This document shows positions 2,942-29,280 of a DNA stretch of 30,354 nt, in pieces (the first letter of the stretch is position 1; every line of letters starts with the position of its first letter). Source of the stretch: a virus; the UHGV virus genome UHGV-0236227; one strand, 5' to 3'. The position numbers and the translations under genes were made by a program. The notes beneath the pieces were generated by a model, which was given only the letters and a program-made list of their open reading frames with translations, was not told the origin of the DNA and did no database searches.

Positions 2942-3549
2942 CAGGACAACCTCGCAATGGTAAACTCATCAACCGGTGGCTGTGGTTCCTGTGATTCATT
3001 CTGGCTATGCGAGCCAGCACTAAGAATCACGCGATTGTACATATTGAGGGCAAACGTACCGAGGTCTGCATTCCCAGTCAGCGCCATGTTAATAGCTGCC
3101 GCAAGACGCCAGGCCAACGCCTCCATAAAAATGGCATCAAACATGTTCACATCTGAAACGCGAGAGACATACTTGAGCCATGCCTGCGGCTGGTCTGTGT
3201 AGATCAACTTTCCTGTTCCGTTGGTGTCTGCACCAACTTCGTACTGAACGCGCATTGCTGCTGTTGGATTGCGTACACCAGGAAGCATAATTTCAGTAAT
3301 GCGCAGACAATCGGACGGGTACTGGTACGCATATTCCCAGTCAGGCGGTGGATTGTTCGTATCTGCAAGCGCCACGCGTTTGGTAGCAAAGTTCCAGTCA
3401 AAATCAGAAAGCACAGCATCACGGCAGGCCTCAAAGTGCAGCGAACATTCCCCTGCTTCCTTGCTGGCTTCCGTCAGGCTGTTAATGCTGCGGCTGTTGC
3501 CAATATTGGACAGCGCACGATTACAGATCTCTACTACAGAGGCCATCAC
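2941..3549 (-). CDS. Tail tubular protein A-like (T7 gp11-like)
   Basis: 202-aa ORF; N-terminal segment (ALSNIGNSRSINSLTE) resembles the T7 gp11 N-terminus as recalled; size close to gp11 (196 aa); synteny with the gp12-like gene. Confidence 0.55.
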   Translation of the reverse strand: MMASVVEICNRALSNIGNSRSINSLTEASKEAGECSLHFEACRDAVLSDFDWNFATKRVALADTNNPPPDWEYAYQYPSDCLRITEIMLPGVRNPTAAMRVQYEVGADTNGTGKLIYTDQPQAWLKYVSRVSDVNMFDAIFMEALAWRLAAAINMALTGNADLGTFALNMYNRVILSAGSHSQNESQEPQPPVDEFTIARLS

Positions 3550-9074: not shown

Positions 9075-9151
9075 GTGGCATTAGCTCAGTTGGACAGAGC
9101 AACCGCCTTCTAAGCGGTTGGTCGCAGGTTCGAATCCTGCATGCCACGCCA
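9075..9151 (+). tRNA. tRNA-Arg (anticodon UCU), phage-encoded
   Basis: 77-nt cloverleaf folded by hand: 7-bp acceptor stem GTGGCAT/ATGCCAC, D-arm GCTC-AGTTGGACA-GAGC, anticodon stem ACCGC/GCGGT with loop CTTCTAA, T-arm GCAGG-TTCGAAT-CCTGC, encoded CCA end. Confidence 0.9.
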
Positions 9152-11942: not shown

Positions 11943-12176
11943 TCAAAGTCCATCAAATTCATCGTAAAAACTCTCGTCAAGATACCCTTCCCATTTACCG
12001 CGAATGAAAATTACATCCTCGCCGCAAGGGTGCTGACTGTCGATAACTATATCCCTCCTGGCGCAACCATACTTATGCATGAGAAATTTAACCTCTTTCG
12101 GAAAATTTGCTGAGTTATCTCTCATATCTTCAAGGTCGTAGCGTATTTTTGGCATAACACCTTCGTGACATGTCAC
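11943..12176 (-). CDS. Hypothetical protein
   Basis: 77-aa ORF; start ambiguous (GTG at 12176 or ATG at 12155). Confidence 0.4.
   Translation of the reverse strand: MTCHEGVMPKIRYDLEDMRDNSANFPKEVKFLMHKYGCARRDIVIDSQHPCGEDVIFIRGKWEGYLDESFYDEFDGL
12165..12176. repeat. Perfect 12-bp palindrome GTGACATGTCAC (copy 2)
   Basis: Identical to 9711..9722, including the upstream ATAACACC. Confidence 0.6.
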
Positions 12177-12520
12177 ACTATTAATTTCGTTTCATGCCAG
12201 CCTTTAGTCACCCAGCATTGCGAGTCACCATTACACGGGCATGAATTAACGGGAACTCTCTCGCCGCACTTACCGCAAAGTTTTCTGCTGATCGATTTTA
12301 TACGCCCGCGCACACGTGCATCATCCTGGCGGATCAGCAGCGCGATGTACTCGGCCATTTCATAGGGATCGTGACCAGGGCGCCGGGCGGCGCAGTTCCG
12401 CGCCAGCATTTCCTGCTCCTGCTTATCCAGCACCAGTTCAATTTTGCGCTCACCAGCGGCGGACTGCCGAGCGCGCTGCGCGGCTTTGCGTTCTGCGGGG
12501 GATTTAGCCACGAATCGCAC
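12173..12520 (-). CDS. Cys-rich putative zinc-binding protein (candidate late-gene regulator or Lar-like protein)
   Basis: 115-aa ORF (GTG start in the track); basic N-terminus and C-terminal C-x2-C...C-x-C cluster (CGKCGERVPVNSCPCNGDSQC). Function is inferred from position upstream of terS. Confidence 0.45.
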   Translation of the reverse strand: MRFVAKSPAERKAAQRARQSAAGERKIELVLDKQEQEMLARNCAARRPGHDPYEMAEYIALLIRQDDARVRGRIKSISRKLCGKCGERVPVNSCPCNGDSQCWVTKGWHETKLIV

Positions 12521-12626
12521 TCCACGCCAGATTGATTAATGACTCCCAGGCAATATAAACCAGGATACCAGCAGCCAGGCCGAAACCAATCACCATGGCA
12601 TAAAGCAGAGCGTTGCGCTTGTTCAT
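12504..12626 (-). CDS. Small hydrophobic peptide (single predicted transmembrane helix)
   Basis: 40-aa ORF (MNKRNALLYAMVIGFGLAAGILVYIAWESLINLAWSAIRG) with a perfect AGGAGG Shine-Dalgarno 7 nt upstream; start overlaps the stop of the upstream gene (TAATG). Below the track's size cut-off. Confidence 0.4.
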   Translation of the reverse strand: MNKRNALLYAMVIGFGLAAGILVYIAWESLINLAWSAIRG

Positions 12627-13288
12627 TACTTCGCCTCCTGCGGCGGTTCCGGTAGCGGCATCCAGTGAGTTACGTCATCCAAGATATTTCCTGATAAATA
12701 CGTGAAAGCTCTATATTTTTTGTAATCAATTGGATTTACAACCCAGTTCCAATATGCGGCCACGATTTCACCTTGACTAAATGCCAGTAACATTTTGGTG
12801 TCTTCCGGCATTCGATCACTACAGCTTATCCAACCACCCGGAGTTACCGGAGAGTTGCCGCGTTCTTTAATGTGCAAGCGAGGCTCACCATCTTTTGGTT
12901 CAGGCCACTGGCGTTCCATGTTGATCTTCAATTTATTTTCCATAGCAGCGGTAATTTCAGCATCACTGATACCAGCACGGCGCTGTGCATCCCACAACAG
13001 AAACTGCATATCAGCCCACTCGCTAAGATCGTCTGGTTCGGCTGCGGCTTCCAGTGCCTCTTTTGAGAGATGTTTCAGCGGACCAATGGGGCCAACGCAG
13101 CCAAATGTGGAGTCAGACCATTTGGCATGCTCGTGGCGAATCTGTTCGCGTTCCAGTGAGGCGAGAGCGATTTTAAATGCTGTAAGCATGTGTGCTTGAT
13201 CGTTGTCGAGTCCGAATGGCATTTCATCTCGTGCTGACTCAATACTGGTAATCGTATTTTGTAGCCATTCTTTGGTAAAAGTGCTCAT
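12626..13288 (-). CDS. DUF550/DUF551-like phage protein (MazG-like pyrophosphohydrolase-type N-terminal domain, tentative)
   Basis: 220-aa ORF; recalled resemblance to DUF550 and DUF551 motifs (C-terminal THWMPLP). Confidence 0.55.
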   Translation of the reverse strand: MSTFTKEWLQNTITSIESARDEMPFGLDNDQAHMLTAFKIALASLEREQIRHEHAKWSDSTFGCVGPIGPLKHLSKEALEAAAEPDDLSEWADMQFLLWDAQRRAGISDAEITAAMENKLKINMERQWPEPKDGEPRLHIKERGNSPVTPGGWISCSDRMPEDTKMLLAFSQGEIVAAYWNWVVNPIDYKKYRAFTYLSGNILDDVTHWMPLPEPPQEAK

Positions 13289-13788
13289 CGTAAAATATCC
13301 TCTATACTGGTAAGTCCTTCATTATTTAGCCAGATCATGGCGTCATCCGGCAACTTGCTGTCTGGTTTGGCGTTTTTGAGAGAGGAACTCAGTCGCTTAA
13401 TCCACATTGTCACCTCAGTAATGCGCCTGTCTTTGCCTTCCAGCTCAACACGCAGCTTCCCTACCGTTAGCGCAATATCCTCGTTCTCCTGGTCGCGGCG
13501 TTTGATGTATTGCTGGTTTCTTTCCCGTTCATCCAGCAGTGCCAGCACGGTAGCCGGGTTAGCCTCTGCTATGAATTCAGCGTTTGCATAAGCCTGAGCA
13601 TCTGATTCAATCAGGCAGTTAACATGACATTCCGCAATCACGCCACCGGGTTCTCCTTTCCATTTTTGACAAACAAAAACTCCTGTTAAATTGCCGTGCT
13701 GGTTAACAGATGTATGCCCTACGATGTAGCTTCCTTTAGTTGCTTTCTCTGCCTTTTCACGCAGTGCCTGATAGTCAATCTTGCTCAC
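13285..13788 (-). CDS. Ead/Ea22-like protein
   Basis: 167-aa ORF containing the NPATVLALLDE motif typical of lambdoid Ead/Ea22-like proteins. Confidence 0.55.
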   Translation of the reverse strand: MSKIDYQALREKAEKATKGSYIVGHTSVNQHGNLTGVFVCQKWKGEPGGVIAECHVNCLIESDAQAYANAEFIAEANPATVLALLDERERNQQYIKRRDQENEDIALTVGKLRVELEGKDRRITEVTMWIKRLSSSLKNAKPDSKLPDDAMIWLNNEGLTSIEDILR

Positions 13789-14291
13789 TGGTTGCCTCCT
13801 TTGCGAAGCTGGTCGGCGAACAAACGTACACCAGACGCTTCACTGCGTAGAAACTTAACGGCATCATCAAAACCACCTCGTTCTGCGTCGTCTGCTCCGT
13901 TGTCGAGGTTATCTGCGTACATCTCTACCCCCTGCGCCCGTACTTCAGCCAGGAAAGCATCGGTGGCTGGGGGTTCGATATCGTTAATTTCAGGAAGAAT
14001 CTCTTCCCATGTGGCGATATCGCCATTCAAATGCCATCCGGAAATTCCACTGGAGTTATCCGCAACACTGCGAACGGCTTCAATAGTTTCGAGCATTACC
14101 GCACTCTCCGCCGCCAGCGCCGCGCATCTGGCTTCAAGTTCCGCAAACTTATCAGCTACTGACTTCGGACCGTCTTCACCGCATGCCTGCATCATGGCTG
14201 TTTCCCATGCCCGCTCATTAGCCAGAGCAGCATCACAGAGACGTCGAGATCTGTTCAGTTGCTCTTCAAGTTCTTCATAACTCGGTTTCAT
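13785..14291 (-). CDS. Hypothetical acidic protein (early-region accessory)
   Basis: 168-aa ORF, ATGA-coupled to the downstream gene. Confidence 0.5.
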   Translation of the reverse strand: MKPSYEELEEQLNRSRRLCDAALANERAWETAMMQACGEDGPKSVADKFAELEARCAALAAESAVMLETIEAVRSVADNSSGISGWHLNGDIATWEEILPEINDIEPPATDAFLAEVRAQGVEMYADNLDNGADDAERGGFDDAVKFLRSEASGVRLFADQLRKGGNQ

Positions 14292-14352
14292 CTTTACCCT
14301 CGCTTATCCACATAACTTATTGATTACATTGATAACTAAAAAGATCGTCGAT

Positions 14353-14961
14353 TCATGCCGATCTATTTTTCATCAGTGATTCATAAAACTTTTGCCACTT
14401 ATGCCGACCGAAATTAGCCTTCGAGTTACAGCTCGAACAAAGGCAAATAAGGTTCTCCTGACGACAGTCTTGCTTGTCGTAATTGATGTGATGAGTTGTT
14501 AGCCTTTTGTCTGTTCCATCACAACCTGGGTTCTGACAAGTAAAACCATCTCGCTCAATAACCCTCTTGCTCGTTTCTCGGAAATCCCACGGATACGGCA
14601 ATCTCGATAATCCACCAGACCAGTTTGGATTTCCTTCCCCCTTCATCAGAGAAGAACGCATTATGTTGGAACACTGTTTCGAGCAGCATTTATGACGCTT
14701 CTCATGACTCAAGAAAACGGAGAACGAAGATCCGCATACGCAGCATATTTTTAATACTCGCTTTAGTTCCCGATTTACCGTCTTGCCTCGCTGTGAAATT
14801 CCTACACACTGAAGTGAGCAGAACCTTGAAGATGAGTTGGCTCGCTTAACCTGATATTGCCTGCCACATACGGAACAAACCTTTTCGATTTTCCCACCCT
14901 TCCAATTCGGGTTTTTATCACCGGATACAATCAATCCCGCAGCATTGGGCTTCTCGCTCAT
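14353..14961 (-). CDS. HNH endonuclease
   Basis: 202-aa ORF with duplicated NPNW-GG...C-x-C-G modules and an HNH-type motif (HHINYDKQD...NLICLCSSCN). Confidence 0.7.
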   Translation of the reverse strand: MSEKPNAAGLIVSGDKNPNWKGGKIEKVCSVCGRQYQVKRANSSSRFCSLQCVGISQRGKTVNRELKRVLKICCVCGSSFSVFLSHEKRHKCCSKQCSNIMRSSLMKGEGNPNWSGGLSRLPYPWDFRETSKRVIERDGFTCQNPGCDGTDKRLTTHHINYDKQDCRQENLICLCSSCNSKANFGRHKWQKFYESLMKNRSA

Positions 14962-15311
14962 AGTTCCTCAACCTCCCATCCACCACCGAGCTTTTTAGGT
15001 TTTGGATAAGCAACCTGAAAGACAAACGGATAGCTGTCTGCCGCAACCTTCATCTTGACTCTCGCATCGTCAGTAAAGACTGACTTACTTCCCTTAACGT
15101 CCACCATCACCAACTGCCCGTCAGCCAACATCACGGCAAAATCTAAAGTCAGGAAGCAGTTGTCAGCTAACCGCAGCTTGATACCCTCGAATCGATACCA
15201 GGCGATTTCCCCTGCACGTTTACGCTGCTCAAGGTGCTGGCAATACGCAGATTCTGTTTTGTTCATCTGGCCTGTTTTGAGTCGACCAAGAGCCTGTATC
15301 TGTTTTCTCAT
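14958..15311 (-). CDS. DUF1064-like protein (putative nuclease/resolvase-like)
   Basis: 117-aa ORF; AGGGG Shine-Dalgarno; family assignment recalled, not computed. Confidence 0.45.
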   Translation of the reverse strand: MRKQIQALGRLKTGQMNKTESAYCQHLEQRKRAGEIAWYRFEGIKLRLADNCFLTLDFAVMLADGQLVMVDVKGSKSVFTDDARVKMKVAADSYPFVFQVAYPKPKKLGGGWEVEEL

Positions 15312-15314
15312 GAT

Positions 15315-15329
15315 TTACCCCTGAGGTAA
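15315..15329. promoter_or_regulatory. TTACC-N5-GGTAA palindrome (putative operator)
   Basis: TTACCCCTGAGGTAA; overlaps the RBS region of the downstream minus-strand gene. Confidence 0.45.
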
Positions 15330-15376
15330 TTAAAAACCACATAAGACACGAAATCAATAGATTTTAGAATATTTTA

Positions 15377-15391
15377 TTACCCAACAGGTAA
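15377..15391. promoter_or_regulatory. TTACC-N5-GGTAA palindrome (putative operator)
   Basis: TTACCCAACAGGTAA in the P-like / DUF1064-like intergenic region. Confidence 0.45.
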
Positions 15392-15428
15392 TCATCGAGA
15401 CGTAAAAAAATGCGCTATCGCGCTGGTA

Positions 15429-16211
15429 TTACTTGATAAATCCTGCCGCCTTTCCCCGCCTGTATTCCTCCATCAGCCACTGCGCCGGTGTTATTCCCCC
15501 CAGGGTGGCGGCGTTAGGCATGCACCCGAAACTTCGCCCTGGTGGATGGTAAACGTCTCTCCCTGTATCCGGAGGTGTACTCATGGGTTCTGGCTTTGCC
15601 TGTATGCTGATCACCGGATCGGGTATCTGCTGTCCGGAAGCCACCTTTTTCGCCCAATCATCGAGCAGCCTGCGCGCGTGTTTCTCAACCTCAATCTCGC
15701 TAAGCTGGCGCTGATACATTGCACGGCGGGTATCACATACGACCCAGTACATAACCGGATGTCGCCACGGGAATCTTTCGGGACCACCAGGATATAAACT
15801 TTTTTCCTTGCTGTACCGGTGAAACTCCGCCATCACATCGTCAATGGTGACGCCAAGAACCATCTTGCTGTCTTTACACCACTTGATAAATTGCCCTGGC
15901 GACGGCCAGAACGGAGATTCACTGGCGCGGGCGTGGCGCATACCAGCGTTAACCTGTTCCATTGTTGTGATCCCATTCTCCAGAAACGCAAGCATCCATT
16001 GTTTTCGAAATTCGTTTAGCTTTCCTTGCTCGCTGATAGCAGCGATGCTGCCTGGAAATGCAGCCTGTAACTGGACAAACATTTCGTTGAAAATTCTTGC
16101 AACCTGCTCCTTCTTTGCCCTTTCATCGTCAGCAGAAGCAACCGCCGTCGAGTGGTCATGCCCACCACGAAAGCGATCGTACTCATTAAGAAGTTCTGGA
16201 GTTGATTTCAT
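15429..16211 (-). CDS. Replication protein P-like (helicase loader)
   Basis: Recalled similarity to lambda P (LAFLENGITTMEQVNAGMR...PSPGQF); start taken at ATG 16211 with GAGGTG Shine-Dalgarno (track ORF begins 4 codons upstream). Confidence 0.75.
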   Translation of the reverse strand: MKSTPELLNEYDRFRGGHDHSTAVASADDERAKKEQVARIFNEMFVQLQAAFPGSIAAISEQGKLNEFRKQWMLAFLENGITTMEQVNAGMRHARASESPFWPSPGQFIKWCKDSKMVLGVTIDDVMAEFHRYSKEKSLYPGGPERFPWRHPVMYWVVCDTRRAMYQRQLSEIEVEKHARRLLDDWAKKVASGQQIPDPVISIQAKPEPMSTPPDTGRDVYHPPGRSFGCMPNAATLGGITPAQWLMEEYRRGKAAGFIK

Positions 16212-16977
16212 CCCACACCTCATCTATCCAGTCAGTGTTATGCCAGTCAAGGCTCTTTCTGACTTCACCTGATTTCTGTCTACAGAACTGGATGCGCCTT
16301 GCCAGCTTCTGCTCCCACTGTGCCTGATGGTATGCCTTACCCTCAGCCATCCAGTAAATTCTGAACTCTGCAAGTTCCTGTGCCGTTGGCAGACTGTCCA
16401 GGTAGATTCCCTGCAATGAGCTTTTCCGAAGAAAGTCATCTGATGGCTGCCATTGTTCATGCATGACAAATTTGCCTAATTGCCCTGGCCCACCAGGAGG
16501 AACAAAGTTATTCATCACGGCGTTGTTTGCGCCGGGGTCATGAGGCACAGAATCCCCGGTTTTTGTCCTGCTCTCCCTCTCTTGGTTAAATGACTGGTTA
16601 TATGACTGGTTCTGGATCCCGTTTTTGGGATCATTCAACATCCCGTTTTCGGGAACATTACCGTTTTCGGGTTCATTACACCCTTCTAGGTTGCCTTTAA
16701 TGTTCCCGTTTTTGGTTATATTAAGAGAGAAAACCCGCACTCTTTTTGTCGCTCCCTTTCTCTCTCCGGTATCTGAAATAAGCCCCATTTTCATGAGCGA
16801 TATAAGCCCGGCCTGCACGGTTTTTTTATTCAGGCAAGTGTCTTTAACGAGGCGTTCTATGCTGGGGTAGCAGAGGTTATATTCATCGGCTCTGTCAGCC
16901 ATCGAGAGCAGTATGAGCTTTAATGATGAGCTACCTGGATCTGTCTCCCAGGCCCAATCTGTTGCATGTCTGCTCAT
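16186..16977 (-). CDS. Replication initiator (O-like; N-terminal HTH, C-terminal DnaT-like region)
   Basis: 263-aa ORF with GGAG Shine-Dalgarno; N-terminal winged-helix-like segment, Asn/Gly-rich linker encoded over an iteron cluster, C-terminal region resembling DnaT; overlaps the P-like start. Confidence 0.7.
   Translation of the reverse strand: MSRHATDWAWETDPGSSSLKLILLSMADRADEYNLCYPSIERLVKDTCLNKKTVQAGLISLMKMGLISDTGERKGATKRVRVFSLNITKNGNIKGNLEGCNEPENGNVPENGMLNDPKNGIQNQSYNQSFNQERESRTKTGDSVPHDPGANNAVMNNFVPPGGPGQLGKFVMHEQWQPSDDFLRKSSLQGIYLDSLPTAQELAEFRIYWMAEGKAYHQAQWEQKLARRIQFCRQKSGEVRKSLDWHNTDWIDEVWDEINSRTS
16591..16715. repeat. Origin-like iteron cluster inside the O-like gene
   Basis: TGACTGGTT twice (16591..16611), then four copies of (T)CCCGTTTTYGGG at 16617, 16641, 16659 and 16704, followed by an AT-rich stretch. 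Confidence 0.6.
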
Positions 16978-16992
16978 GATTAATCTCCGCTA

Positions 16993-17193
16993 TCAGTTTG
17001 AGTGTTGTGGGGAGGAATTAATCATGATCTGCTTAATCTCTGCCCTGATGCGACGGTTTGATTCCATGGTGCACTCAACACAGTGTCCGTTGTAAACCCA
17101 GCGTTCACTGTCATGTCCATGCTTACATGGTTTTCCGGTGTAGTAGCGTTTAAGTCCGCGCTTTGCGGCATCAATACGTGTAATGATTTCCAT
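16993..17193 (-). CDS. Small zinc-finger protein (hypothetical; cII-position)
   Basis: 66 aa from ATG 17193 with AGGG Shine-Dalgarno; Cys/His cluster (C-x-H...C-x2-C); between the Cro-like and O-like genes. Confidence 0.4.
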   Translation of the reverse strand: MEIITRIDAAKRGLKRYYTGKPCKHGHDSERWVYNGHCVECTMESNRRIRAEIKQIMINSSPQHSN

Positions 17194-17273
17194 GGTAAGC
17201 CCTGTTATTAGTATTGGGATTACGGTTATTTTGTGCTGACACAAAAAAAAGATCAACCAGATTTGGTTATTTA

Positions 17274-17288
17274 TTACCTTTGAGGTGC
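17274..17288. promoter_or_regulatory. TTACC-N5-GGTGC imperfect palindrome (putative operator)
   Basis: TTACCTTTGAGGTGC downstream of the Cro-like gene. Confidence 0.35.
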
Positions 17289-17343
17289 GAATAGATATGA
17301 AAAGACCGCCGGGTGGCGGTCTACAGAGGGTTGTGACTGGATA

Positions 17344-17574
17344 TCATGAGTAGAAGAAGTATGCCAGTTCTGCTTTTGAGCGCAGCCATTGTCTTGTTTT
17401 ACAGGCTTTAAAAAGCCCATTCATCAATACTTTACCTGGCATTTTGCGCTTACCTGTTAAGTGAGTCTGGATATAGTGACTCGTCGTTCCGGCTTCCTGT
17501 GCGAAGGCTTCACGCTCATCCGGAGTAAGTGCAAGCCAGTGCTTTTTGAAATCGAAATGTCCGTTATCGCTCAT
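17344..17574 (-). CDS. Cro-like HTH regulator (YdaS-like)
   Basis: 76-aa ORF divergent from the repressor-like gene; HTH-like segment (FAQEAGTTSHYIQTHLTGKR). Confidence 0.6.
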   Translation of the reverse strand: MSDNGHFDFKKHWLALTPDEREAFAQEAGTTSHYIQTHLTGKRKMPGKVLMNGLFKACKTRQWLRSKAELAYFFYS

Positions 17575-17610
17575 AGCTATTGCCTGATATTTATTTCAGA
17601 TAATAAATAT

Positions 17611-17673
17611 TCACCCATAAGGTAACAAAAATCAAGGATAGTTACCTATGAGGTGCATTTACCTGTTGGGTAA
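17611..17673. promoter_or_regulatory. Tripartite operator cluster in the cro / repressor intergenic region
   Basis: Three palindromes: TCACC-N5-GGTAA (17611..17625), TTACC-N5-GGTGC (17642..17656), TTACC-N5-GGTAA (17659..17673); centre spacings 31 and 17 bp. Confidence 0.6.
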
Positions 17674-17728
17674 TATTGCTTTAAATTGAATCATCTACTG
17701 ATTCATATATGAGGCGATTTTCCAGAAA

Positions 17729-18313
17729 ATGAAAAGTATCCAGGACGTCCGCAGGCAAAATCTCAACGACTTGATCGACCGTGAATTCAATGGTGTTCAG
17801 ACGCGGATGGCAGAAAAACTTGGAACTCAGGCAAATCTGGTAAACCGCTGGGCTCTTGGCAAGAAGGTTATCGGCGACCAGGTTGCACGAAAAATTGAAG
17901 CTGCCGCCAATAAACCCCGTAACTGGCTTGATATTGATCGTTCGCTTTCTCAGGAGGGTTTTCAGCCTGTCGGCCCGAGCGATATAGGTCAGTTGGCGGC
18001 TCACAACCTGGAACGCTGGATGAGCGAAAGCCGCGACCTTTCAACACAGGGAAAACTTCACCGCGCATCCGGCGTCGCCCAGGTGACAATCAGCCGCCTG
18101 TTAAACAATGAGGTCAGCGTTTCCATTTCCACTCTGGAGAATGTTGCATCCGCATTCGGGCGTCACGGATATGAACTACTGATTCACCCGCACGACCCTG
18201 CGACTATCAACTATGACCGCTCACGCTACGCATTGTTACCCGAAACCGAGAAAGCAAAGATCGAAAGTTACATTGAATTTGTCATCAACCAGAACGAAAA
18301 AAGCAAACAATAA
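17729..18313 (+). CDS. CI-like repressor candidate with two HTH-like segments and no recognisable S24 peptidase domain
   Basis: 194-aa ORF divergent from Cro-like gene; two XRE-type HTH-like segments; no Ser-Lys peptidase motifs recognised. Confidence 0.55.
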   Translation: MKSIQDVRRQNLNDLIDREFNGVQTRMAEKLGTQANLVNRWALGKKVIGDQVARKIEAAANKPRNWLDIDRSLSQEGFQPVGPSDIGQLAAHNLERWMSESRDLSTQGKLHRASGVAQVTISRLLNNEVSVSISTLENVASAFGRHGYELLIHPHDPATINYDRSRYALLPETEKAKIESYIEFVINQNEKSKQ

Positions 18314-18370
18314 AACTATAGTTTTCAGTAAGTAAGCCGCCTCATGGCGGCTTTTTTATTGCCAGATAGA

Positions 18371-18447
18371 TTACCTTACGGGTAATTTTTTTAACTCATA
18401 TCTATTGACACTAAACCAAATAAGCATAATTATTACCTCAACGGTAA
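18371..18447 (+). promoter_or_regulatory. pL-like promoter region with two TTACC-N5-GGTAA palindromes flanking a TTGACA -35 element
   Basis: Sites at 18371..18385 and 18433..18447; TTGACA at 18405..18410; directly upstream of the recombination operon. Confidence 0.5.
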
Positions 18448-18466
18448 CAGACCGAGGTAACAAGTT

Positions 18467-18619
18467 ATGCAGTGGAAAATCATCAACGGTTGGTACTGCG
18501 TTACTGCATGCGGATTCATGAGCTGGAAGTTCCGCACCTTACAGGAAGGCATTAAGTGGGCTTTCGTCAGCAAAGAAGCTCGCGATGTAGCCAACGATAA
18601 CGAGATATGGGAGGGCTGA
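18467..18619 (+). CDS. Small hypothetical protein (50 aa)
   Basis: ATG 18467 with GAGGT Shine-Dalgarno at 9 nt; stop lies 2 nt before the next gene's ATG; below the track's size cut-off. Confidence 0.3.
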   Translation: MQWKIINGWYCVTACGFMSWKFRTLQEGIKWAFVSKEARDVANDNEIWEG

Positions 18620-18621
18620 TA

Positions 18622-18921
18622 ATGAACGTTAATCAGCAGAAAAATCTTCAAAAAATCATGCTGGCATTCGACAAGGACTACCGCCTGTCAGAACAGCTAT
18701 ATGACCGACAAGTTGAACTGATTGAGAGCATCCGACTTCATCAACTGTCCTCAACTTTCGACGTTGTAACAGGCAAAGGCGTTCGTCAGGAAGTGCTGGA
18801 GGCTGCTAAAGACAGCCCTGAGTTCGAAGAACTGATGGATTCCTACCGGCGCGAGGCAATGGCAATTATCGCCCGCTGGGATCTGGCGGATCGGATTGAT
18901 GGGCAGAGGGAAGCGGCATGA
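18622..18921 (+). CDS. Hypothetical protein upstream of the exonuclease
   Basis: 99 aa from ATG 18622 (GGGAGGG Shine-Dalgarno); stop overlaps the YqaJ start (ATGA). Confidence 0.5.
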   Translation: MNVNQQKNLQKIMLAFDKDYRLSEQLYDRQVELIESIRLHQLSSTFDVVTGKGVRQEVLEAAKDSPEFEELMDSYRREAMAIIARWDLADRIDGQREAA

Positions 18922-19817
18922 TGCAGAACGCTGGAATCATGGATAGAACAAAATACATCGGAGGAAGCGATGTTGCAGGGATTCTTGGAATTAGCCCATG
19001 GCGCACCCCGCTTGAGGTTTATCTGGATAAGGTCCAGCCACGTGTCAAACCAGTAGACCCAAGCAAGCAGAAAGTTTTCACGCGTGGCCAGCGTATGGAG
19101 CCATACGTAATAGACCTGCTTTCTGAGGAAACAGGGATGGAAATCGTTCATCGCGGAAACCGCTATATCCACCGTGATTACGATTTTATTGCAGCTGAGA
19201 TCGATGCAGAAGCAGCGTCAGGCGAGAACATTGAGATCAAAACAGTTAGTCCGTTCAAAGCCAAAGAATGGGGAGAAATCCAGACAGATGCAATTCCTGT
19301 GCATTACACGGCCCAGGCCATGCACGGGTTGATGGTTACAAACAAACAGGTATGCGTTTTCGGTGTGCTTATCGGTGGCGACGACTTCCGAATCTATCGG
19401 GTTGAGCGTGATGAAGAAACTATCCAGGCGATCTTAGAAAAAGAAATCGCTTTCTGGGACCGAGTGAAAAATCTTAACCCGCCGGAAGCTACCAGCGTAA
19501 GCGATGTATCGCTGATGTTTGAGAAAGATGCCGGGACAAGTATCGAGGCTGACGGAAAGGCACTCGCACTATTCAACGATCTACGAGACATGAAGTCACG
19601 CAGAAAATCACTGGAAGAAGAAATAGCTATATCAGAAGAGAAGCTGAAGATGTACATGCAAGAGCACTCAGTCCTGACCCTGGACGGAAAGCCGCTCTGC
19701 ACATGGAAATCTCAGATCAGCAACAGATTCGACCAGAAGCTATTCCAGTCAGTACACCCTGAGTTATTCGAAAAATTCAAAACAACAACGACACAACGCG
19801 TCTTCAGAATGAAGTAA
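18918..19817 (+). CDS. YqaJ-like viral recombinase exonuclease
   Basis: 299-aa ORF; N-terminal YIGGSDVAGILGISPWRTPLEVY motif typical of the YqaJ/lambda-exonuclease fold; upstream of RecT. Confidence 0.85.
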   Translation: MMQNAGIMDRTKYIGGSDVAGILGISPWRTPLEVYLDKVQPRVKPVDPSKQKVFTRGQRMEPYVIDLLSEETGMEIVHRGNRYIHRDYDFIAAEIDAEAASGENIEIKTVSPFKAKEWGEIQTDAIPVHYTAQAMHGLMVTNKQVCVFGVLIGGDDFRIYRVERDEETIQAILEKEIAFWDRVKNLNPPEATSVSDVSLMFEKDAGTSIEADGKALALFNDLRDMKSRRKSLEEEIAISEEKLKMYMQEHSVLTLDGKPLCTWKSQISNRFDQKLFQSVHPELFEKFKTTTTQRVFRMK

Positions 19818-19826
19818 GGAGAAAAA

Positions 19827-20849
19827 ATGTCTATCAATGCACTTAAGGCAGCGGCTACCGGTAACCAAGTTGCACATCATAATGAGAAACCAACAACTCT
19901 GGCCGGACTTCTGGCAGACCCAAAAATTAAAGCTCAGATGGCTTTGGCACTTCCAAAGCACATGACAGCAGACCGTCTGGCGCGCATAGCAACCACAGAG
20001 ATCAGAAAGGTTCCAAAACTTGCATCATGCGACCAAGCCAGCTTCCTGGGGGCAATTATGCAATGTGCCCAATTGGGTCTTGAACCAGGCGGAGCTCTTG
20101 GACACGCTTACCTGATACCGTTCGACAAACGCCAGAAAGTAAATGGAAGATGGGAAACCGTATCTACAGAAGCACAGCTGATTATCGGCTATCGCGGAAT
20201 GATTGACCTTGCCCGCCGCTCTGGGCAGATCCTGAGTATCTCGGCTCGTACCGTACATACAAACGACAAATTCAGCTACTCATACGGCCTGGAAGAAACG
20301 CTCGAGCATTTACCTTGCGAAACAGGTGACCGCGGAGAATTAACGCACGTTTACGCCGTTGCACGACTGAAAGATGGCGGAGTCCAATTTGAAGTTATGA
20401 GCCGGGCAGACGTTGAGAAAGTTCGTGCACTGAGCAAAGCCGGTAGCAGTGGCCCATGGGTTGATCACTTCGATGAGATGGCTAAAAAAACAGTAATTCG
20501 CCGACTGTTCAAATATCTTCCTGTTTCTATTGAAATGCAGAAGGCTGTTGTTATGGATGAGCGCGCTGAAGCTGGACTTAGCCAAGATAACGCAGCTGTT
20601 ATCACTGGTGAATATTCCGTAGTTGACGATGAGCGTCAACACCTGTCGCCAATTTCAGATTCAGAACGAGAAGAAGCTCGAGAATATATCATCGCGATAC
20701 TTAATAGCCTGGATCCATCTGCTGAAGATGCAAAAACGATGTTCAAGCGCGCTGAAAATGAAATTAACACCATGGCTGAAAAGCTCGGTGATGAATATCA
20801 CCAAAAATTCATGATGACGCTTAACGATATGCGTCCAGAATTCGAGTAA
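19827..20849 (+). CDS. recT: RecT-family single-strand annealing protein
   Basis: 340-aa ORF with AAGGAG Shine-Dalgarno; RecT-like core (GYRGMIDLARRSGQI); paired with the YqaJ exonuclease. Confidence 0.85.
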   Translation: MSINALKAAATGNQVAHHNEKPTTLAGLLADPKIKAQMALALPKHMTADRLARIATTEIRKVPKLASCDQASFLGAIMQCAQLGLEPGGALGHAYLIPFDKRQKVNGRWETVSTEAQLIIGYRGMIDLARRSGQILSISARTVHTNDKFSYSYGLEETLEHLPCETGDRGELTHVYAVARLKDGGVQFEVMSRADVEKVRALSKAGSSGPWVDHFDEMAKKTVIRRLFKYLPVSIEMQKAVVMDERAEAGLSQDNAAVITGEYSVVDDERQHLSPISDSEREEAREYIIAILNSLDPSAEDAKTMFKRAENEINTMAEKLGDEYHQKFMMTLNDMRPEFE

Positions 20850-22393: not shown

Positions 22394-23644
22394 TTATTCC
22401 CCCGCCATCCACTTCTCAAACTTCGACGGGGAGAACGGAATCAGATCCGTATGCTCCCCGTCAATCCATGAATCAATCATATCGGCCCACTGCTGCAACA
22501 TGTAGGCGCGCTGTCTGGCGTATTCCGCTTTGTTATATACGGCGCGCACACCTTTCTGCTCATGTGCCAGAGCCTTTTCAATCCAGTCTGAAGGATAACC
22601 AGCCTCATGCAACAACGTACTGGCTGTACGGCGCATATCATGTACAGTGAAGTCCTGAATATGCTCACCATCTTCATTTATTATTTTCACCGTTCTGTCG
22701 ATCAGAGAGTTCAGCGCGGCATTAGATAATGGCTTCCGGAAATTGTAACGACCAGGAACCAGATATTCACTTCCACCAGCGCACATCTGCAACCCGACCA
22801 ATATATCCTGTGCCTGTTTAGGCAGGTAAATAACGTGCGCCCGGCTTCCCTTCATGCGGTCTGGAGGAATTGTCCATGTCCATTTTTTAAAATCTATTTC
22901 ATCCCACGTTGCATTGGTGAATTCGCCCTTACGAACCATAGTGATAAGCACCAGTTTTAAAGCCATTTTCATAGTGCCCATAGCACCAATGGCATCCAGC
23001 GTGCGGAAGAACAGGCCAATTTCTTCTGGTGTCAGTGTTCGCTCTCGTGGTTTAAATATGGCGATAGACGAAGGTTTAATGTCAGCCGCAGGATTAAACA
23101 AACCATGACCACGGTCATTGGCGTGACGGTATACGCTACTGATGATCTCCCTGGCCTGCACTGCTGTTGCCCGGCCACCGCGTTCGACAATCCGGTCACA
23201 CAAATCACGAACCATCGATGTGGTAATTTCAGCCATCATTTTATTGCCAAGAACCGGAAGTATGTCACGGTCGATCACCGCCTGTTTCATTGCGCGGGTA
23301 CTGTCAGCCAGGATGACGTGTTTCATATAACTGTCGGTATGTACCGCAAACGTCTCGGCACCACGAATCTTTTTGATACCGTCACGTTTAGCCGCAGCCG
23401 GTGACTGGCCTGCTTTAAGCAGCTTCTTTGCAGCAATCAGTTCTTCTCGCGCTTCTGCCAGGCTGATACCGTCACGCCCATACTGCCCGATTACCAGTGT
23501 TTCGCGGCGACCGTTGATACGGTAGTCATAGCGAAACGAGACCGTGCCTGACGTAAGCACAGCTACATACAGCCCGTCACGATCGGAGACCTTGTACAGT
23601 TTGTCCTGCGGCTTGAGGTTTTTTAATTTTGTATCGGTAAGCAC
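22394..23644 (-). CDS. int: Tyrosine integrase (P4-like, Arm-type N-terminal domain)
   Basis: 416-aa ORF (GTG start); N-terminal LTDTKLKNLKP...YKVSDRDGLY motif; C-terminal catalytic region (HDMRRTASTLLHEAGYP). Confidence 0.9.
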   Translation of the reverse strand: MLTDTKLKNLKPQDKLYKVSDRDGLYVAVLTSGTVSFRYDYRINGRRETLVIGQYGRDGISLAEAREELIAAKKLLKAGQSPAAAKRDGIKKIRGAETFAVHTDSYMKHVILADSTRAMKQAVIDRDILPVLGNKMMAEITTSMVRDLCDRIVERGGRATAVQAREIISSVYRHANDRGHGLFNPAADIKPSSIAIFKPRERTLTPEEIGLFFRTLDAIGAMGTMKMALKLVLITMVRKGEFTNATWDEIDFKKWTWTIPPDRMKGSRAHVIYLPKQAQDILVGLQMCAGGSEYLVPGRYNFRKPLSNAALNSLIDRTVKIINEDGEHIQDFTVHDMRRTASTLLHEAGYPSDWIEKALAHEQKGVRAVYNKAEYARQRAYMLQQWADMIDSWIDGEHTDLIPFSPSKFEKWMAGE

Positions 23645-23788: not shown

Positions 23789-23938
23789 TTAAATTAGTAT
23801 CTGAATAGGAATGAGTTGCTATGAGTTAGCTGTTAATCATTCCCACTCAATTATTTACGATAACCATAACCAATTGAGTGATAACATTTTTCCAAATCTC
23901 AATTTTTCCCGTACCGTTTTATATACCGTCACCGGAAA

Positions 23939-25751: not shown

Positions 25752-25925
25752 ACTTTCTCCTGTTTACTATCTATAAGCCAGTCAATTATTGATGACTAAA
25801 CCCGCATAGTAAACCATATATGAATCATTATTGTTCCATATCATATATCTCAATAAAAGTACTAATGATTTTACAGAACGAGCCAGCAGAGTGGGGGCAG
25901 TTGTACAGGAACCATAGACTTAATT

Positions 25926-25954
25926 TTGTATTTAATAATGCTATGGTGTAATAA
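25926..25954 (+). promoter_or_regulatory. Candidate sigma70-like promoter (TTGTAT-17-TAATAA) in an AT-rich spacer
   Basis: Hexamers read directly; a plus-strand terminator lies about 100 bp downstream. Confidence 0.3.
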
Positions 25955-26032
25955 ACCTGAACATGTATTTAAAATACGTACTGATTCATGATAGAATTCA
26001 AAGATAACTTTTCACAAACTCCGTTTTTGATA

Positions 26033-26058
26033 CCCGCAAAATATTGCGGGCTTTTTTT
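26033..26058 (+). terminator. Intrinsic terminator (CCCGCAA-aata-TTGCGGG plus 7 T) at the 3' end of the tailspike gene
   Basis: Canonical only in the plus orientation; the T-run overlaps the tailspike stop codon. Confidence 0.5.
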
Positions 26059-29000
26059 AACGTTCTTCCAGAGACTGAATCCGCTCTTTTATCTTATCCA
26101 TTTCTCTGCGCTGCCATGCTGCCTCGATATAGAATAAGAGATCAGGCCTGACCCCCCATCTAGATCCTGCTGGCGTTATTTCAACGCGCTCAATGATGTC
26201 TTCCATTACCATCACTGGATTATCATCCTCATCAACAATGATGCTCCCGTCATTATCAGTCAGCGGCATTTCCCTTTGGCCAGTAATGACGTCATCATAT
26301 ACTGCGGGATAATCGTCATAGCAAAGAAAGGCATAGCGGCATGTTGTGCTTTCTTCTTCCATGAGTCCGTGAGAAATAAGAACATCACGAAGTTGCTGCG
26401 CGATTACACCATGATGTATCCTCGCCCCTTCTTCCCCCTTTATAGCGACAGCGTTCAGCCATTTATAAGCGATATACCTGACGTCACCCCAGGCATCCAG
26501 CAATGCTTCGTCAGGAGAGACCGGCTCTGTCTTTAATGTTCCGTCACTGGTAACCACAGGATTGGAGCCAAGATAAACTGTCGAGAACCTGTTTCCCGGA
26601 CCACCAAGAGCATTTACATTATCAAGATAAGGTTTAACATCTCCGTTCTCAAAAAGATGTTCGAGTGCGTTATATACCGCGCGACGTGGAGTACTGCTTC
26701 CGGAACCATGCAACGTTATCATTGCACCATCTGCTGAAGACGTTGTTTCACCGCCGCTAACGATTAATCTCTGAGCGGTAACATCATCAGACGGTACTTT
26801 CTTCGCAATAATGGCGTAATTACCCTCAAGTTTGACTTCCGCGCGAACTTGTCCTGATGTACCTGCATGGACAGTCAGTGACTGGACGGCAACATCATCT
26901 GTGAAATCAACGGGTACAGGAACCGTCCTCACGCCTGACGTCGACATAAAAGTAGGAAGCGTTCTGTTAGGAGTGGCTCCGTAGACAAAATCCCTTGAAA
27001 CAAATTCTTCCTGTTTGATTTTCACCCTGAAACAATATAAATCAGCCGGGTGACCATCGTGAACATAAGGATATTTTCTGTTGTTATCCCCTATGCTCCA
27101 TGGGTTTAGAAAGTCTTCCCCACCGAAAATGTAGTACAGCCAGTTGTCTTTGATACAAACTGAACCAACACCAACCGCAGAGTTAACTATTCCGCCCTGA
27201 TAAATCTGATCAGTAACATTAACCCACTCTACATTATCCAGACTCCACTCATTGACGTTAACTCTGGTCATAAATGTTCTTGGATAATTTCCTGCATAAC
27301 GGTTATCAGGTTCTCCTCCTTCCCACTCACCAAATGCGCGCTCACTGCCAAAAATAATCAGCTCATCGCCAACTTTGGCAAAAGGAAGGTTTGAGTGATG
27401 AACATTATTTGGGAAGCGAAGAGAATTCCATGATGTACCTAAATCAGAGCTTCTGTGCAATGAACTACCGGGTTGAGTACTTAATGTCCCCCTGGTCGTC
27501 AGATACAGAATGCCATCATAATATTTTACACATGGCTCAGATGCATTCGCCTCATATTCTGCAGGTATGCGTCTGCGAACAAAGCTACCAGGAGAACCGA
27601 AAGCATCAGAGAAATAGAGTATCCCAAGCTCGCGTGGACCAATATCACCATTATGGTAGCCAACAGCAAAACTGTTATCGCTAATCGTCGCAAAACTGTG
27701 AATCTCAGTAACAGGAGTGCTTCCGTCAACAAAAGAAGGAATAGTTCCAAGACTGGTTTTTCTCCATGGTGACGAGTGAAATGATGTACCAAAACTCCAG
27801 TATCTACCCTCGTTATTCTGATCCACATCCTGGGTATTTTGCGTCGTAACTGTAAAAGTATTTTTATCAATAACAGTAGTCACCGTCATATTCCCGGTAA
27901 CACCTGTAACACCAGAGTTTGAGAAGTTGACAAAATCACCAGCAAATAATCCGTGATCAGTAATGCGAATATAAGCGACTTGCTGATTTGCTGCTTTCGT
28001 TATACCACCATAAGCGCGAAGGCTGCGACTCATTGGGCGATCCCACAACTCTGCAACCTGCAGTTTATTTCCGCTCACGGTCCGCGTCTCAATTACAGCA
28101 AAAAGGCGATTTCTGACAACCCCCATACTCATGCAGTGATAGTTAACTGTGGGATAGTTTTCATGTAAATCTGTAAGCCATTCCGGCGTTGTCCAGGTCT
28201 TCCCGTCATCTCCTGAGCGAACCCATGCAACATGGAGGTTATTTACACCATGGCGGTCTCCAGCCATAAAAGGCGCATAGATGACATTGTCATATACAAA
28301 CGTTTTATCCTGCGTCCAGGCGTTGTACCACGGTGTATCTGTAATTTTAAATAACTCTCCCTGGATAAAATCTTCAGAAGCATAAAAAAGAGGCTGGCCC
28401 GGTATTCTCTCAAATAAAAAACGAGCATTTTTAAATCGACTGACATCCGGAAGAGTTGATACTTTAAAAGTAAGCCCTAATCCGTCAATTTTATAACCTG
28501 GAGATGAGGCTTCAAGGCACGCGCTTATTGCAGTGGAATCGTCATTTATACCATCACCAACAGCTCCAAAATCTTTGGGGCTAATAGCATCACGCATTTT
28601 ATCCTGGAACGTTCGGTACACAGCCCCAGAACCATACTGAATAAACCAACCAAAACCACCAACAACCCCGGCGATTGCAGCATCGACATAATTACGCATT
28701 GAGCGATTATTTACAGCGTCCTGCTCAAATGATGGATCTGCAAGGTTAGAAATTTTGTTTTGCTTTGCATCGTAATATTTTGCAAGCAAAGATGGTTTCA
28801 TCAATGCACGTCTGAACCACCCAAAACATTGCTGGATCAGCATCGTCAGGTAGTCAAAGGCATCTTCATGCACTTCTGGGAAAAATTTTCCCTGATTGCG
28901 AAGGTCTGTCTCCTGCACTACATCAAGCACACGATCTATCGTAATTCGCCATCCAGTAGCAAGCGGAGACGGAAGAACCACAGAACCGCCACTATAAGTG

Positions 29001-29176
29001 CCCGCCCCAGTTACCGTATAACCGGTATCCAGAACCAATTCTGTTACGTTTCCGTTCAGGTCAGACACCTGAACAACCAGGTCTGATTTTCTGAAAATTC
29101 GAAAAGTATACGGAAACGATGTCGTAACGCCGTTACCTGTGTATTCGTTGTGGTCAACTTCGGTTGAGACCGTCAT
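26057..29176 (-). CDS. Tailspike / tail fibre with T7 gp17-like N-terminus, Asp-box beta-propeller-like centre and C-terminal intramolecular chaperone domain (endosialidase-like)
   Basis: 1039-aa ORF with GGAG Shine-Dalgarno; N-terminal particle-binding-like region; two Asp-box motifs (SGDDGKTW, SSDLGTSW); DFGAVGDG-type motif; C-terminal chaperone-like tail. Confidence 0.8.
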   Translation of the reverse strand: MTVSTEVDHNEYTGNGVTTSFPYTFRIFRKSDLVVQVSDLNGNVTELVLDTGYTVTGAGTYSGGSVVLPSPLATGWRITIDRVLDVVQETDLRNQGKFFPEVHEDAFDYLTMLIQQCFGWFRRALMKPSLLAKYYDAKQNKISNLADPSFEQDAVNNRSMRNYVDAAIAGVVGGFGWFIQYGSGAVYRTFQDKMRDAISPKDFGAVGDGINDDSTAISACLEASSPGYKIDGLGLTFKVSTLPDVSRFKNARFLFERIPGQPLFYASEDFIQGELFKITDTPWYNAWTQDKTFVYDNVIYAPFMAGDRHGVNNLHVAWVRSGDDGKTWTTPEWLTDLHENYPTVNYHCMSMGVVRNRLFAVIETRTVSGNKLQVAELWDRPMSRSLRAYGGITKAANQQVAYIRITDHGLFAGDFVNFSNSGVTGVTGNMTVTTVIDKNTFTVTTQNTQDVDQNNEGRYWSFGTSFHSSPWRKTSLGTIPSFVDGSTPVTEIHSFATISDNSFAVGYHNGDIGPRELGILYFSDAFGSPGSFVRRRIPAEYEANASEPCVKYYDGILYLTTRGTLSTQPGSSLHRSSDLGTSWNSLRFPNNVHHSNLPFAKVGDELIIFGSERAFGEWEGGEPDNRYAGNYPRTFMTRVNVNEWSLDNVEWVNVTDQIYQGGIVNSAVGVGSVCIKDNWLYYIFGGEDFLNPWSIGDNNRKYPYVHDGHPADLYCFRVKIKQEEFVSRDFVYGATPNRTLPTFMSTSGVRTVPVPVDFTDDVAVQSLTVHAGTSGQVRAEVKLEGNYAIIAKKVPSDDVTAQRLIVSGGETTSSADGAMITLHGSGSSTPRRAVYNALEHLFENGDVKPYLDNVNALGGPGNRFSTVYLGSNPVVTSDGTLKTEPVSPDEALLDAWGDVRYIAYKWLNAVAIKGEEGARIHHGVIAQQLRDVLISHGLMEEESTTCRYAFLCYDDYPAVYDDVITGQREMPLTDNDGSIIVDEDDNPVMVMEDIIERVEITPAGSRWGVRPDLLFYIEAAWQRREMDKIKERIQSLEER

Positions 29177-29280
29177 GTTAAATCTCCAGATAGTCGCAGC
29201 ACCCGTTGCGCCGCATATCTGGTTATTCTATTACCTGAAAAACCACATATGGATAGAAAGACTGTAAATATGAATAGATA

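Follow-up and report, generated by a model that had tools for sequence, protein, structure and literature searches.

The window, a stretch of 30,354 nucleotides (UHGV virus genome UHGV-0236227), is the unintegrated genome of a Uetakevirus, a temperate podovirus like epsilon15 and phiV10. It carries a complete and co-linear Uetakevirus gene set in the unintegrated arrangement, with the published attP core intact 191 bp upstream of int. Nucleotide identity to phiv142-3, ZX5 and phiV10 is ~97% over much of its length. The window is a mosaic relative to ZX5: ~23% of the first 25 kb, mostly early genes, has no megablast match there. A single intact ATG-to-stop ORF of 1039 aa encodes the tailspike (Table 1). 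The earlier note had listed this ORF without giving its strand; the ORF is real and lies on the minus strand. It is preceded by a Shine-Dalgarno sequence and followed by a hairpin which, flanked by an A/T run, is terminator-like.

Table 1. The tailspike gene, its parts and its flanking signals, in window coordinates
Feature	Position	Strand	Basis or remark
Tailspike gene, 1039 aa + stop	26057..29176	minus	Product = RefSeq WP_001561035.1; 2 aa off vB_EcoP_ZX5 ORF7
Shine-Dalgarno, GGAG	29184..29187	minus	8 nt upstream of tailspike ATG; read from sequence
Predicted Uetakevirus-type particle-binding anchor, aa 1-193	28598..29176	minus	Homology to phiv142-3, epsilon15 gp20, Dpo31
Joint segment with DFGAVGDG (aa 202-209), aa 194-233	28478..28597	minus	Nucleotide comparison
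Endosialidase cassette, gene nt 699-3091	26086..28478	minus	99.4% nt-identical to CUS-3 siaK1
End_N_terminal, aa 205-271	28364..28564	minus	Pfam PF12218, 109.6 bits
Catalytic six-bladed beta-propeller (End_beta_propel), aa 272-721	27014..28363	minus	Pfam PF12217, 775 bits
Asp-box 1, SGDDGKTW, aa 321-328	28193..28216	minus	Motif match
Beta-barrel (End_beta_barrel) inserted in propeller, aa 383-465	27782..28030	minus	Pfam PF12195, 154.4 bits
Asp-box 2, SSDLGTSW, aa 576-583	27428..27451	minus	Motif match
Stalk domain, aa 722-876	26549..27013	minus	Pfam PF12219 End_tail_spike, 260.4 bits
Predicted self-cleavage site, SDGTLK, aa 877-882	26531..26548	minus	Alignment to K1F endoNF
C-terminal intramolecular chaperone domain, aa 878-1039	26060..26545	minus	Pfam Peptidase_S74; PDB 3gw6
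G+C-rich palindromic hairpin CCCGCAAAATATTGCGGG	26033..26050	none	7 nt beyond tailspike stop codon

What kind of tailspike does this gene encode? All four Pfam endosialidase domains, together with Peptidase_S74, score above their curated cut-offs in the protein; NCBIfam returned no family match for it. The endoNF structures of phage K1F (PDB 1v0e and 3gvl) match aa 205-876 at 1047 bits, the 1v0e match being co-linear, and the phi92 endosialidase (PDB 4hiz) matches the protein at 907 bits. By sequence, the product is an endosialidase (endo-N-acetylneuraminidase, GH58) tailspike with predicted activity. A K1-type endosialidase architecture had been proposed in the earlier note, and the Pfam domains and the 62% identity to endoNF bear this out. 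The same identity, extending over 844 aa of a crystallised endosialidase, rules out the note's alternative that the central fold could be that of a different depolymerase. Both motifs claimed for the central region are present, the DFGAVGDG motif and the two Asp-boxes. The pattern S-x-D-x-G-x-x-W matches the protein exactly twice, each time in alignment with an Asp-box of K1F endoNF, and at least two Asp-box-like matches arose in 27 of 20,000 shuffles of the protein.

Alignment to endoNF also locates the active site. His309, Glu547, Arg562 and Arg613, all in the propeller, correspond to K1F His350, Glu581, Arg596 and Arg647. The His350 and Arg647 positions are those changed to Ala in PDB 3gvk (His) and 3gvj (Arg), and we take Glu581, Arg596 and Arg647 to be catalytic residues of endoNF. 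At the other end of the protein, the proposed auto-cleaving chaperone-like domain was recovered by Pfam (Peptidase_S74, PF13884, 41.4 bits; cut-off 22) and by the chaperone-domain structure PDB 3gw6 (317.7 bits, aa 757-1038). A conserved Ser/Lys pair precedes and enters this domain: Ser877 and Lys882 align with K1F Ser911 and Lys916, presumably the self-cleavage pair of endoNF. Cleavage is predicted, and the computed products would be a mature spike of ~97.0 kDa and a released domain of 18.6 kDa.

The N-terminus had been described as T7 gp17-like. We have dropped this as a family assignment, but a remote structural relationship may exist. In a Pfam search run at a permissive E-value, Phage_T7_tail (PF03906) reached 15.3 bits, below its gathering score of 25.2, and covered aa 135-161 at profile positions 123-149 only, and BLASTP against T7 gp17 returned a 22-aa motif only (E=0.043). 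The positive controls pass, T7 at 250.7 bits and the N-terminus of K1F endoNF at 62.8 bits. Homology points instead to an epsilon15 gp20-type anchor, as found in temperate podoviruses of the genus Uetakevirus. Amino acid identity is 71.5% to epsilon15 gp20 (aa 1-165) and 68.1% to phiV10 (aa 1-165/166), rising over aa 1-196 to ~97% (191/196 aa) for phiv142-3 and 99% for EC.W1-9. At the nucleotide level, the anchor and 300 nt of upstream flank are 97.7% identical to phiv142-3. In PMC10408124, residues 1-205 of the phiV10 spike serve as the anchor of the genus. The nearest solved homologue of the anchor consists of domains D1/D2 of Dpo31, of which D1 was located at the virion base in a cryo-EM map in the Dpo31 paper; the anchor probably shares this fold, as judged from the homology. 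AlphaFold2 prediction of aa 1-204 from the single sequence, without alignment, gave a mean pLDDT of 37, too poor a model for comparing the fold with that of T7 gp17.

The tailspike gene is a chimera. Its anchor is specific to the genus, and the endosialidase cassette is nearly identical to that of phage CUS-3. Over aa 234-1026, a span of 793 residues, CUS-3 SiaK1 differs at only 6 positions. The joint segment between anchor and cassette (aa 194-233) has no nucleotide match to either parent type, phiv142-3 or CUS-3.

How did one cassette come to sit on two unrelated phages? We compared 13 sequences of the 2393-bp module and found only two fixed sites between the two chassis types, with several polymorphisms common to both. 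Single copies can be patchworks of the two types: in the Lederbergvirus copy of CE10 the 3' end is of Uetakevirus type, and in that of APEC O18 the middle is. Of 5426 complete E. coli genomes, roughly 45-65 have both a CUS-3-type Lederbergvirus at argW and a Uetakevirus at guaA on the same chromosome. We lean slightly towards the view that the cassette (aa 234-1026) has been exchanged repeatedly, and perhaps is being exchanged currently, between the Uetakevirus at guaA and the unrelated CUS-3-type Lederbergvirus at argW in K1 E. coli. Three SNPs common to the two copies in CE10 had suggested within-genome gene conversion; isolate AF10 shows that these SNPs are not private, and the CE10 evidence is reduced to polymorphisms common to both chassis types. 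If the exchange is real, a capsule-degrading spike, homogenised by recombination between prophages, would be present once or twice in more than half of neuS-positive genomes. A 2.4-kb cassette of >99% identity on two temperate chassis that are often co-resident offers a convenient natural case for the exchange of receptor-binding modules between prophages.

The endosialidase module is prophage-borne in 181 of the 5426 complete E. coli genomes, and the exact gene type of the window occurs in 72; neuS is found in 329. The earlier note had expected a host with a polysialic acid capsule, and several observations agree. The host of vB_EcoP_ZX5 was typed O87:H52:K1 (PMC9782041). Only one complete genome, that of strain 20Y000092, carries the gene at 100% identity. 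This strain has a full kps/neu cluster that includes neuS, and its NeuS (WP_000575410.1) is also that of K1 strain IHE3034. Many carriers are named K1 strains, among them CE10, APEC O1:K1:H7 isolates and IHE3034 itself. The K1 status of the 72 carrier genomes was judged from samples: 5 of the 30 carriers listed fall within a sample of 60 of the 329 neuS-positive genomes, against an expected overlap of ~5.5 if all carriers were K1 and ~0.3 if carriage had no link to K1. The spike reliably marks its host as K1-capsulated E. coli, that is, neonatal-meningitis, ExPEC and APEC lineages.

We are highly confident that the gene belongs to a temperate Uetakevirus infecting K1-capsulated E. coli and encodes its sole tailspike, which both binds and destroys the receptor. 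For the protein of the window, we infer trimerisation, self-cleavage and enzymatic activity as follows. Three chains would assemble, and aa 878-1039, as their intramolecular chaperone, would nucleate the folding of the stalk into a trimer. The chaperone domain would then be cut off after Ser877 by means of the Ser877/Lys882 pair. The N-terminal ~190 residues, probably a beta-sandwich and a coiled coil, would attach the trimer to the Uetakevirus tail. The propeller, with its inserted beta-barrel, and the stalk would bind alpha-2,8-polysialic acid and cleave it internally, and this cleavage would let the virion tunnel through the K1 capsule and reach the outer membrane. Endosialidases are used as polysialic acid reagents and have been tried as anti-capsule therapeutics in animal models.

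Could the fold be kept and the function changed? A catalytically dead spike would serve as a polysialic acid-binding adhesin, and a re-targeted one would cleave another polymer, for example the alternating alpha-2,8/2,9 K92 polymer. Related material exists for the latter: the related endosialidase of phage phi92, whose host is recorded as E. coli K92, is 59.9% identical, and among the 329 neuS-positive genomes about 15 carry a divergent neuS of roughly 87% identity, possibly K92-type. Yet every active-site residue checked is conserved in the window protein, the assayed CUS-3 enzyme is only 6 of 793 residues away, and ZX5, whose spike differs by 2 aa, plaques on a K1 host; the NeuS that the 100%-match lysogen 20Y000092 shares with IHE3034 also speaks for K1. 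We regard a dead or re-targeted enzyme as very unlikely. It is more improbable still that the gene belongs to a decaying prophage remnant and not to a working phage. Spike genes do decay elsewhere, since the CUS-3-type spike of CE10 is annotated as frameshifted and IS elements lie within the spike gene in H90, H105 and H118; here the ORF is intact with its Shine-Dalgarno sequence, the gene set and attP are complete in an unintegrated arrangement, and ZX5 is viable and lysogenising with a spike 2 aa different.

Least probable of all, to the point of near-impossibility, is a pectate-lyase-like beta-helix depolymerase in the central region. The cue for it is the DFGAxGDG motif, which the pectate-lyase-like family PF12708 matches weakly, over aa 201-221 only and at 17.8 bits where the cut-off is 27, and the sister phage phiv142-3 does have a pectate-lyase-like domain behind the same anchor. 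However, the motif is also common to the endosialidase N-terminal extension, which End_N_terminal detects here at 109.6 bits, and all sequence downstream is endosialidase (775, 154 and 260 bits for propeller, barrel and stalk) and 62% identical to the endoNF crystal sequence. Pfam, PDB and the endoNF alignment together refute a pectate-lyase-like reading of DFGAVGDG, and the K1-directed endosialidase tailspike of a working temperate phage is the reading we retain.

How does this spike compare with those already described? Within the genus, the spikes of epsilon15 (gp20), phiV10, phiv142-3 and PAS61 have the same N-terminal anchor and the same gene position as the window. Their receptor-binding parts, in contrast, are O-antigen-specific beta-helix enzymes (endorhamnosidase or pectate-lyase-like) and not endosialidases, and the S74 chaperone domain of the window spike is missing from them. 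K1F endoNF (gp17; 1V0E, 3GVJ/K/L, 3GW6), to which the identity given above extends over aa 196-1039, has the same domain order, Asp-boxes, active-site residues and Ser/Lys cleavage pair; a 7-aa insertion in the window protein (FVDGSTP, aa 482-488) distinguishes the two. The K1F protein also begins with a genuine T7 gp17 domain (the PF03906 match cited above) and contains Tail_spike_N, both missing from the window protein, and K1F (Kayfunavirus) is lytic whereas the window phage is temperate.

The temperate carrier had been considered worthy of remark in the earlier note, and in this the published record disagrees. An assayed endosialidase tailspike has been on record for CUS-3 since 2006; a near-identical protein on a Uetakevirus chassis was published in 2022, and prophage-borne copies of the module lie in the 181 genomes counted above. 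CUS-3 (CP000711, ABQ88383.1) is, like the window, a temperate podovirus of K1 E. coli whose spike has the same catalytic, stalk and chaperone modules, and SiaK1 is annotated in GenBank with endo-alpha-sialidase activity on the evidence of a direct assay. Since the cassette differs from this assayed enzyme by only the 6 aa noted, temperate podoviruses with an endosialidase were already known. The two spikes part at their ends: SiaK1, of 981 aa, begins with a P22 gp9-type head-binding domain where the window spike has the Uetakevirus anchor, and the last ~13 aa differ. CUS-3, a P22-like Lederbergvirus, integrates at argW and not at guaA, and has a phase-variable neuO O-acetyltransferase gene just downstream of its spike, a place where the window has none.

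The closest system is vB_EcoP_ZX5, a plaque-forming and lysogenising temperate Uetakevirus isolated on a K1 host (PMC9782041). Its ORF7 product (QTH80017.1; MW722083) has 1039 aa, as in the window, and differs by S368R and A388V only; nucleotide identity of the tailspike gene including flanks is 99.6-99.7%. In both phages the spike has the holin/endolysin genes on one side and, on the other, a small divergent ORF next to the antirepressor gene; attP and integrase are the same. The ZX5 paper (2022) already named three parts in the protein, a "T7-like tail fibre" N-terminus, an endosialidase and an endosialidase chaperone (PMC9782041). The tailspike of the window is thus already known, being published for vB_EcoP_ZX5, named in RefSeq and present in prophages of many K1 strains, and between the ZX5 spike and that of the window there is no difference in kind.

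What does the tailspike gene, a single ORF of 1039 codons on the minus strand with its start codon (ATG) at 29176 and its stop codon at 26057, encode? Four endosialidase-specific Pfam domains follow one another in order, each far above its curated cut-off. [quoted passage not shown] Together with Peptidase_S74, the last of these bears out the chaperone-like C-terminus proposed earlier. The alignment with full-length K1F gp17 spans 844 residues at 62% identity and contains a single 7-aa insertion. Because identity to the crystal-structure sequence is so high, the fold is settled without modelling: it is a sialidase propeller, and not the other fold that the earlier note had allowed for. On sequence grounds, the functional reading of the tailspike as an endosialidase is correct. 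In the alignment, K1F His350, Glu581, Arg596, Arg647, Ser911 and Lys916, which we take to have functional roles in endoNF, are conserved as His309, Glu547, Arg562, Arg613, Ser877 and Lys882; the deposited mutants 3gvk and 3gvj carry alanine at two of these K1F positions. Both predicted Asp-boxes and the DFGAVGDG motif were located, the former being the sole matches to the Asp-box pattern in the tailspike; at least two Asp-box-like matches arose in 27 of 20,000 shuffles of the protein.

Features of the tailspike gene and the surrounding genome (window positions unless marked aa or gene nt)
Feature	Position	Strand	Remark
GGAG	8 nt upstream of tailspike ATG	-	sequence
G+C-rich hairpin	7 nt past tailspike stop		sequence
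Anchor vs epsilon15 gp20	aa 1-165		71.5% identity
Anchor vs phiV10	aa 1-166		68% identity
Anchor vs EC.W1-9	aa 1-196		99% identity
Anchor vs phiv142-3	aa 1-196		about 97% identity (191/196 aa)
Anchor part with 300 nt upstream	gene nt 1 to about 578 (aa 1-193)		97.7% identical to phiv142-3
Joint, with DFGAVGDG	28478-28597; gene nt about 579-698 (aa 194-233)	-	no nt match to phiv142-3 or CUS-3 parent type
Endosialidase module	gene nt 699-3091 (aa 234-1026)		99.4% identical to CUS-3 siaK1; 6 aa differences
Gene end	final 40 or so nt (about 13 aa)		diverged from CUS-3 again
DFGAVGDG	aa 202		motif search
Asp-box 1, SGDDGKTW	aa 321		motif search
Asp-box 2, SSDLGTSW	aa 576		motif search
End_N_terminal	aa 205-271		Pfam 109.6 bits
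End_beta_propel	aa 272-721		Pfam 775 bits
End_beta_barrel (inserted)	aa 383-465		Pfam 154.4 bits
End_tail_spike	aa 722-876		Pfam 260.4 bits
Peptidase_S74 ('chaperone of endosialidase')	aa 877-937		Pfam 41.4 bits
dATP/dGTP pyrophosphohydrolase fused to DUF551	12626-13288	-	early region
Ead/Ea22-like protein	13285-13788	-	early region
DnaT-domain replication protein	16186-16977	-	early region
YqaJ-type exonuclease and RecT	18918-20849	+	early region
int	22394-23644	-	integrase
attP core ATTGAGTGGGAATGATT	23835-23851	-	intact, as published; 191 bp upstream of integrase start, lysis genes on other side

The tailspike is already known: it differs by two residues (99.7% nucleotide identity) from the published ORF7 of Escherichia phage vB_EcoP_ZX5, a Uetakevirus. 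In 2022 ORF7 was described as having three parts, a T7-like tail fibre at the N-terminus, an endosialidase in the middle and an endosialidase chaperone at the C-terminus, in a temperate phage of an O87:H52:K1 host that integrates at guaA (PMC9782041). The gene is 100% identical to one in E. coli 20Y000092 (WP_001561035.1), named in RefSeq 'endosialidase catalytic beta-propeller domain-containing protein'. The temperate P22-like phage CUS-3 (Lederbergvirus) of K1 strain RS218 has an endosialidase tailspike whose direct-assay annotation is cited to a 2006 paper, and reviews treat it as the standard example of how spike modules are exchanged. Of 5426 complete E. coli genomes, the catalytic module (coverage of at least 80%) occurs in 181, the full-length window-type spike gene in 72 and the CUS-3-type junction in 154. 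From these counts and the published cases, temperate podoviruses with an endosialidase are common in K1 strains, and not the unusual find they had been taken for.

Is the host, as had been predicted, encapsulated in polysialic acid? The ZX5 host is K1, and 20Y000092 carries a complete kps/neu cluster at pheV, with a NeuS that shares its protein accession with K1 strain IHE3034. The polysialyltransferase gene neuS occurs in 329 of the 5426 complete genomes. Five of the 30 listed carriers (BCE049, EC69, CUVET18-565, E23 and F11) turned up among 60 of these genomes sampled at even spacing; about 5.5 would be expected if all carriers were K1, and about 0.3 if K1 and carriage were unrelated. All three observations uphold the prediction. 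The neuS allele is at least 95% identical to that of IHE3034 in 314 genomes; about 15, the environmental strain SMS-3-5 among them, have alleles at 80-95% identity, possibly encoding a K92-type polysialyltransferase.

For the N-terminus, the earlier reading is not supported as a family assignment. It had been called T7 gp17-like, and the ZX5 paper likewise labels that of ORF7 a T7-like tail fibre (PMC9782041). With a gathering score of 25.2, Pfam Phage_T7_tail reaches 15.3 bits, over aa 135-161 only (controls: T7 gp17, 250.7 bits; K1F endosialidase N-terminus, 62.8 bits), and the BLASTP comparison with T7 gp17 yields a single match of 22 residues (E=0.043); any structural link to T7 gp17 would be a remote one. 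The N-terminus instead matches the anchor in the spikes of epsilon15-like temperate podoviruses, with weaker relatives in Pseudomonas phages AF and Ab31, Bordetella phage BPP-1 and Pelagibacter podophages. Among solved structures its one homologue is Dpo31, from a marine podovirus (116 bits, aa 1-180); the Dpo31 paper describes a beta-sandwich D1 with a coiled coil after it and reports that a cryo-EM map was used to place D1 at the virion base. AlphaFold, run on the single sequence of aa 1-204, gave a model too poor to use (pLDDT 37). The phiv142-3 spike has the same anchor but continues into a pectate-lyase-like domain. The joint between anchor and endosialidase module seems, from its nucleotide sequence, to be of third origin. 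DFGAVGDG, common to endosialidase and pectate-lyase-like spikes, lies at this swap point.

The 2393-bp cassette (window 26086-28478, minus strand; loci L003, L009-L015, L020 and L021) has >99% identity between prophages of the Uetakevirus and CUS-3 types. Across 13 copies from both chassis types, variation is confined to 31 columns, and just two sites, close to the module 5' end, are fixed by chassis. Both chassis share variants at columns 406, 622, 691 and 1121, and the CUS-3-type copies of CE10 and APEC O18 have, respectively, a 3' end and a middle of Uetakevirus type. Because fixed sites are few, polymorphisms are common to both chassis and copies are patchworks, the alignment suggests repeated recombination between two prophage gene pools. 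SNPs that had appeared private to the two CE10 copies proved not to be so once isolate AF10 was added to the comparison. The module occupies at least two places in 26 of the 30 best-matching carriers, and from counts in complete E. coli genomes we estimate that roughly 45-65 genomes have both spike types. Some chromosomal copies are inactivated: the CE10 CUS-3-type gene (L012:445-3391) carries a frameshift annotation and has one extra nucleotide at module column 1367, and in three genomes (matches H90, H105 and H118) the spike gene contains IS903B or IS3 elements.

The first 25 kb of the window are about 97% identical to the Uetakeviruses phiv142-3, ZX5, PAS61 and phiV10 over 47-77% of their length, in the ZX5 gene order reversed. 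The attP lies intact between the integrase and lysis genes, and the window therefore represents an unintegrated phage arrangement (circular or permuted) and not a prophage junction; related prophages sit in the guaA/yfgI region. The early region (11964-20845) is mosaic relative to ZX5, about 7 kb lacking a megablast match. A phage-borne tRNA-Arg (anticodon TCT; 9075-9151, plus strand) between the portal and terminase genes is also annotated in the 20Y000092 prophage. Downstream of the spike there is no capsule- or O-antigen-modifying gene, only a 305-bp non-coding gap (25752-26056) and then a holin gene. In this the window differs from two known systems: CUS-3, with phase-variable neuO directly downstream of its spike, and epsilon15, with serotype-conversion genes in that position.
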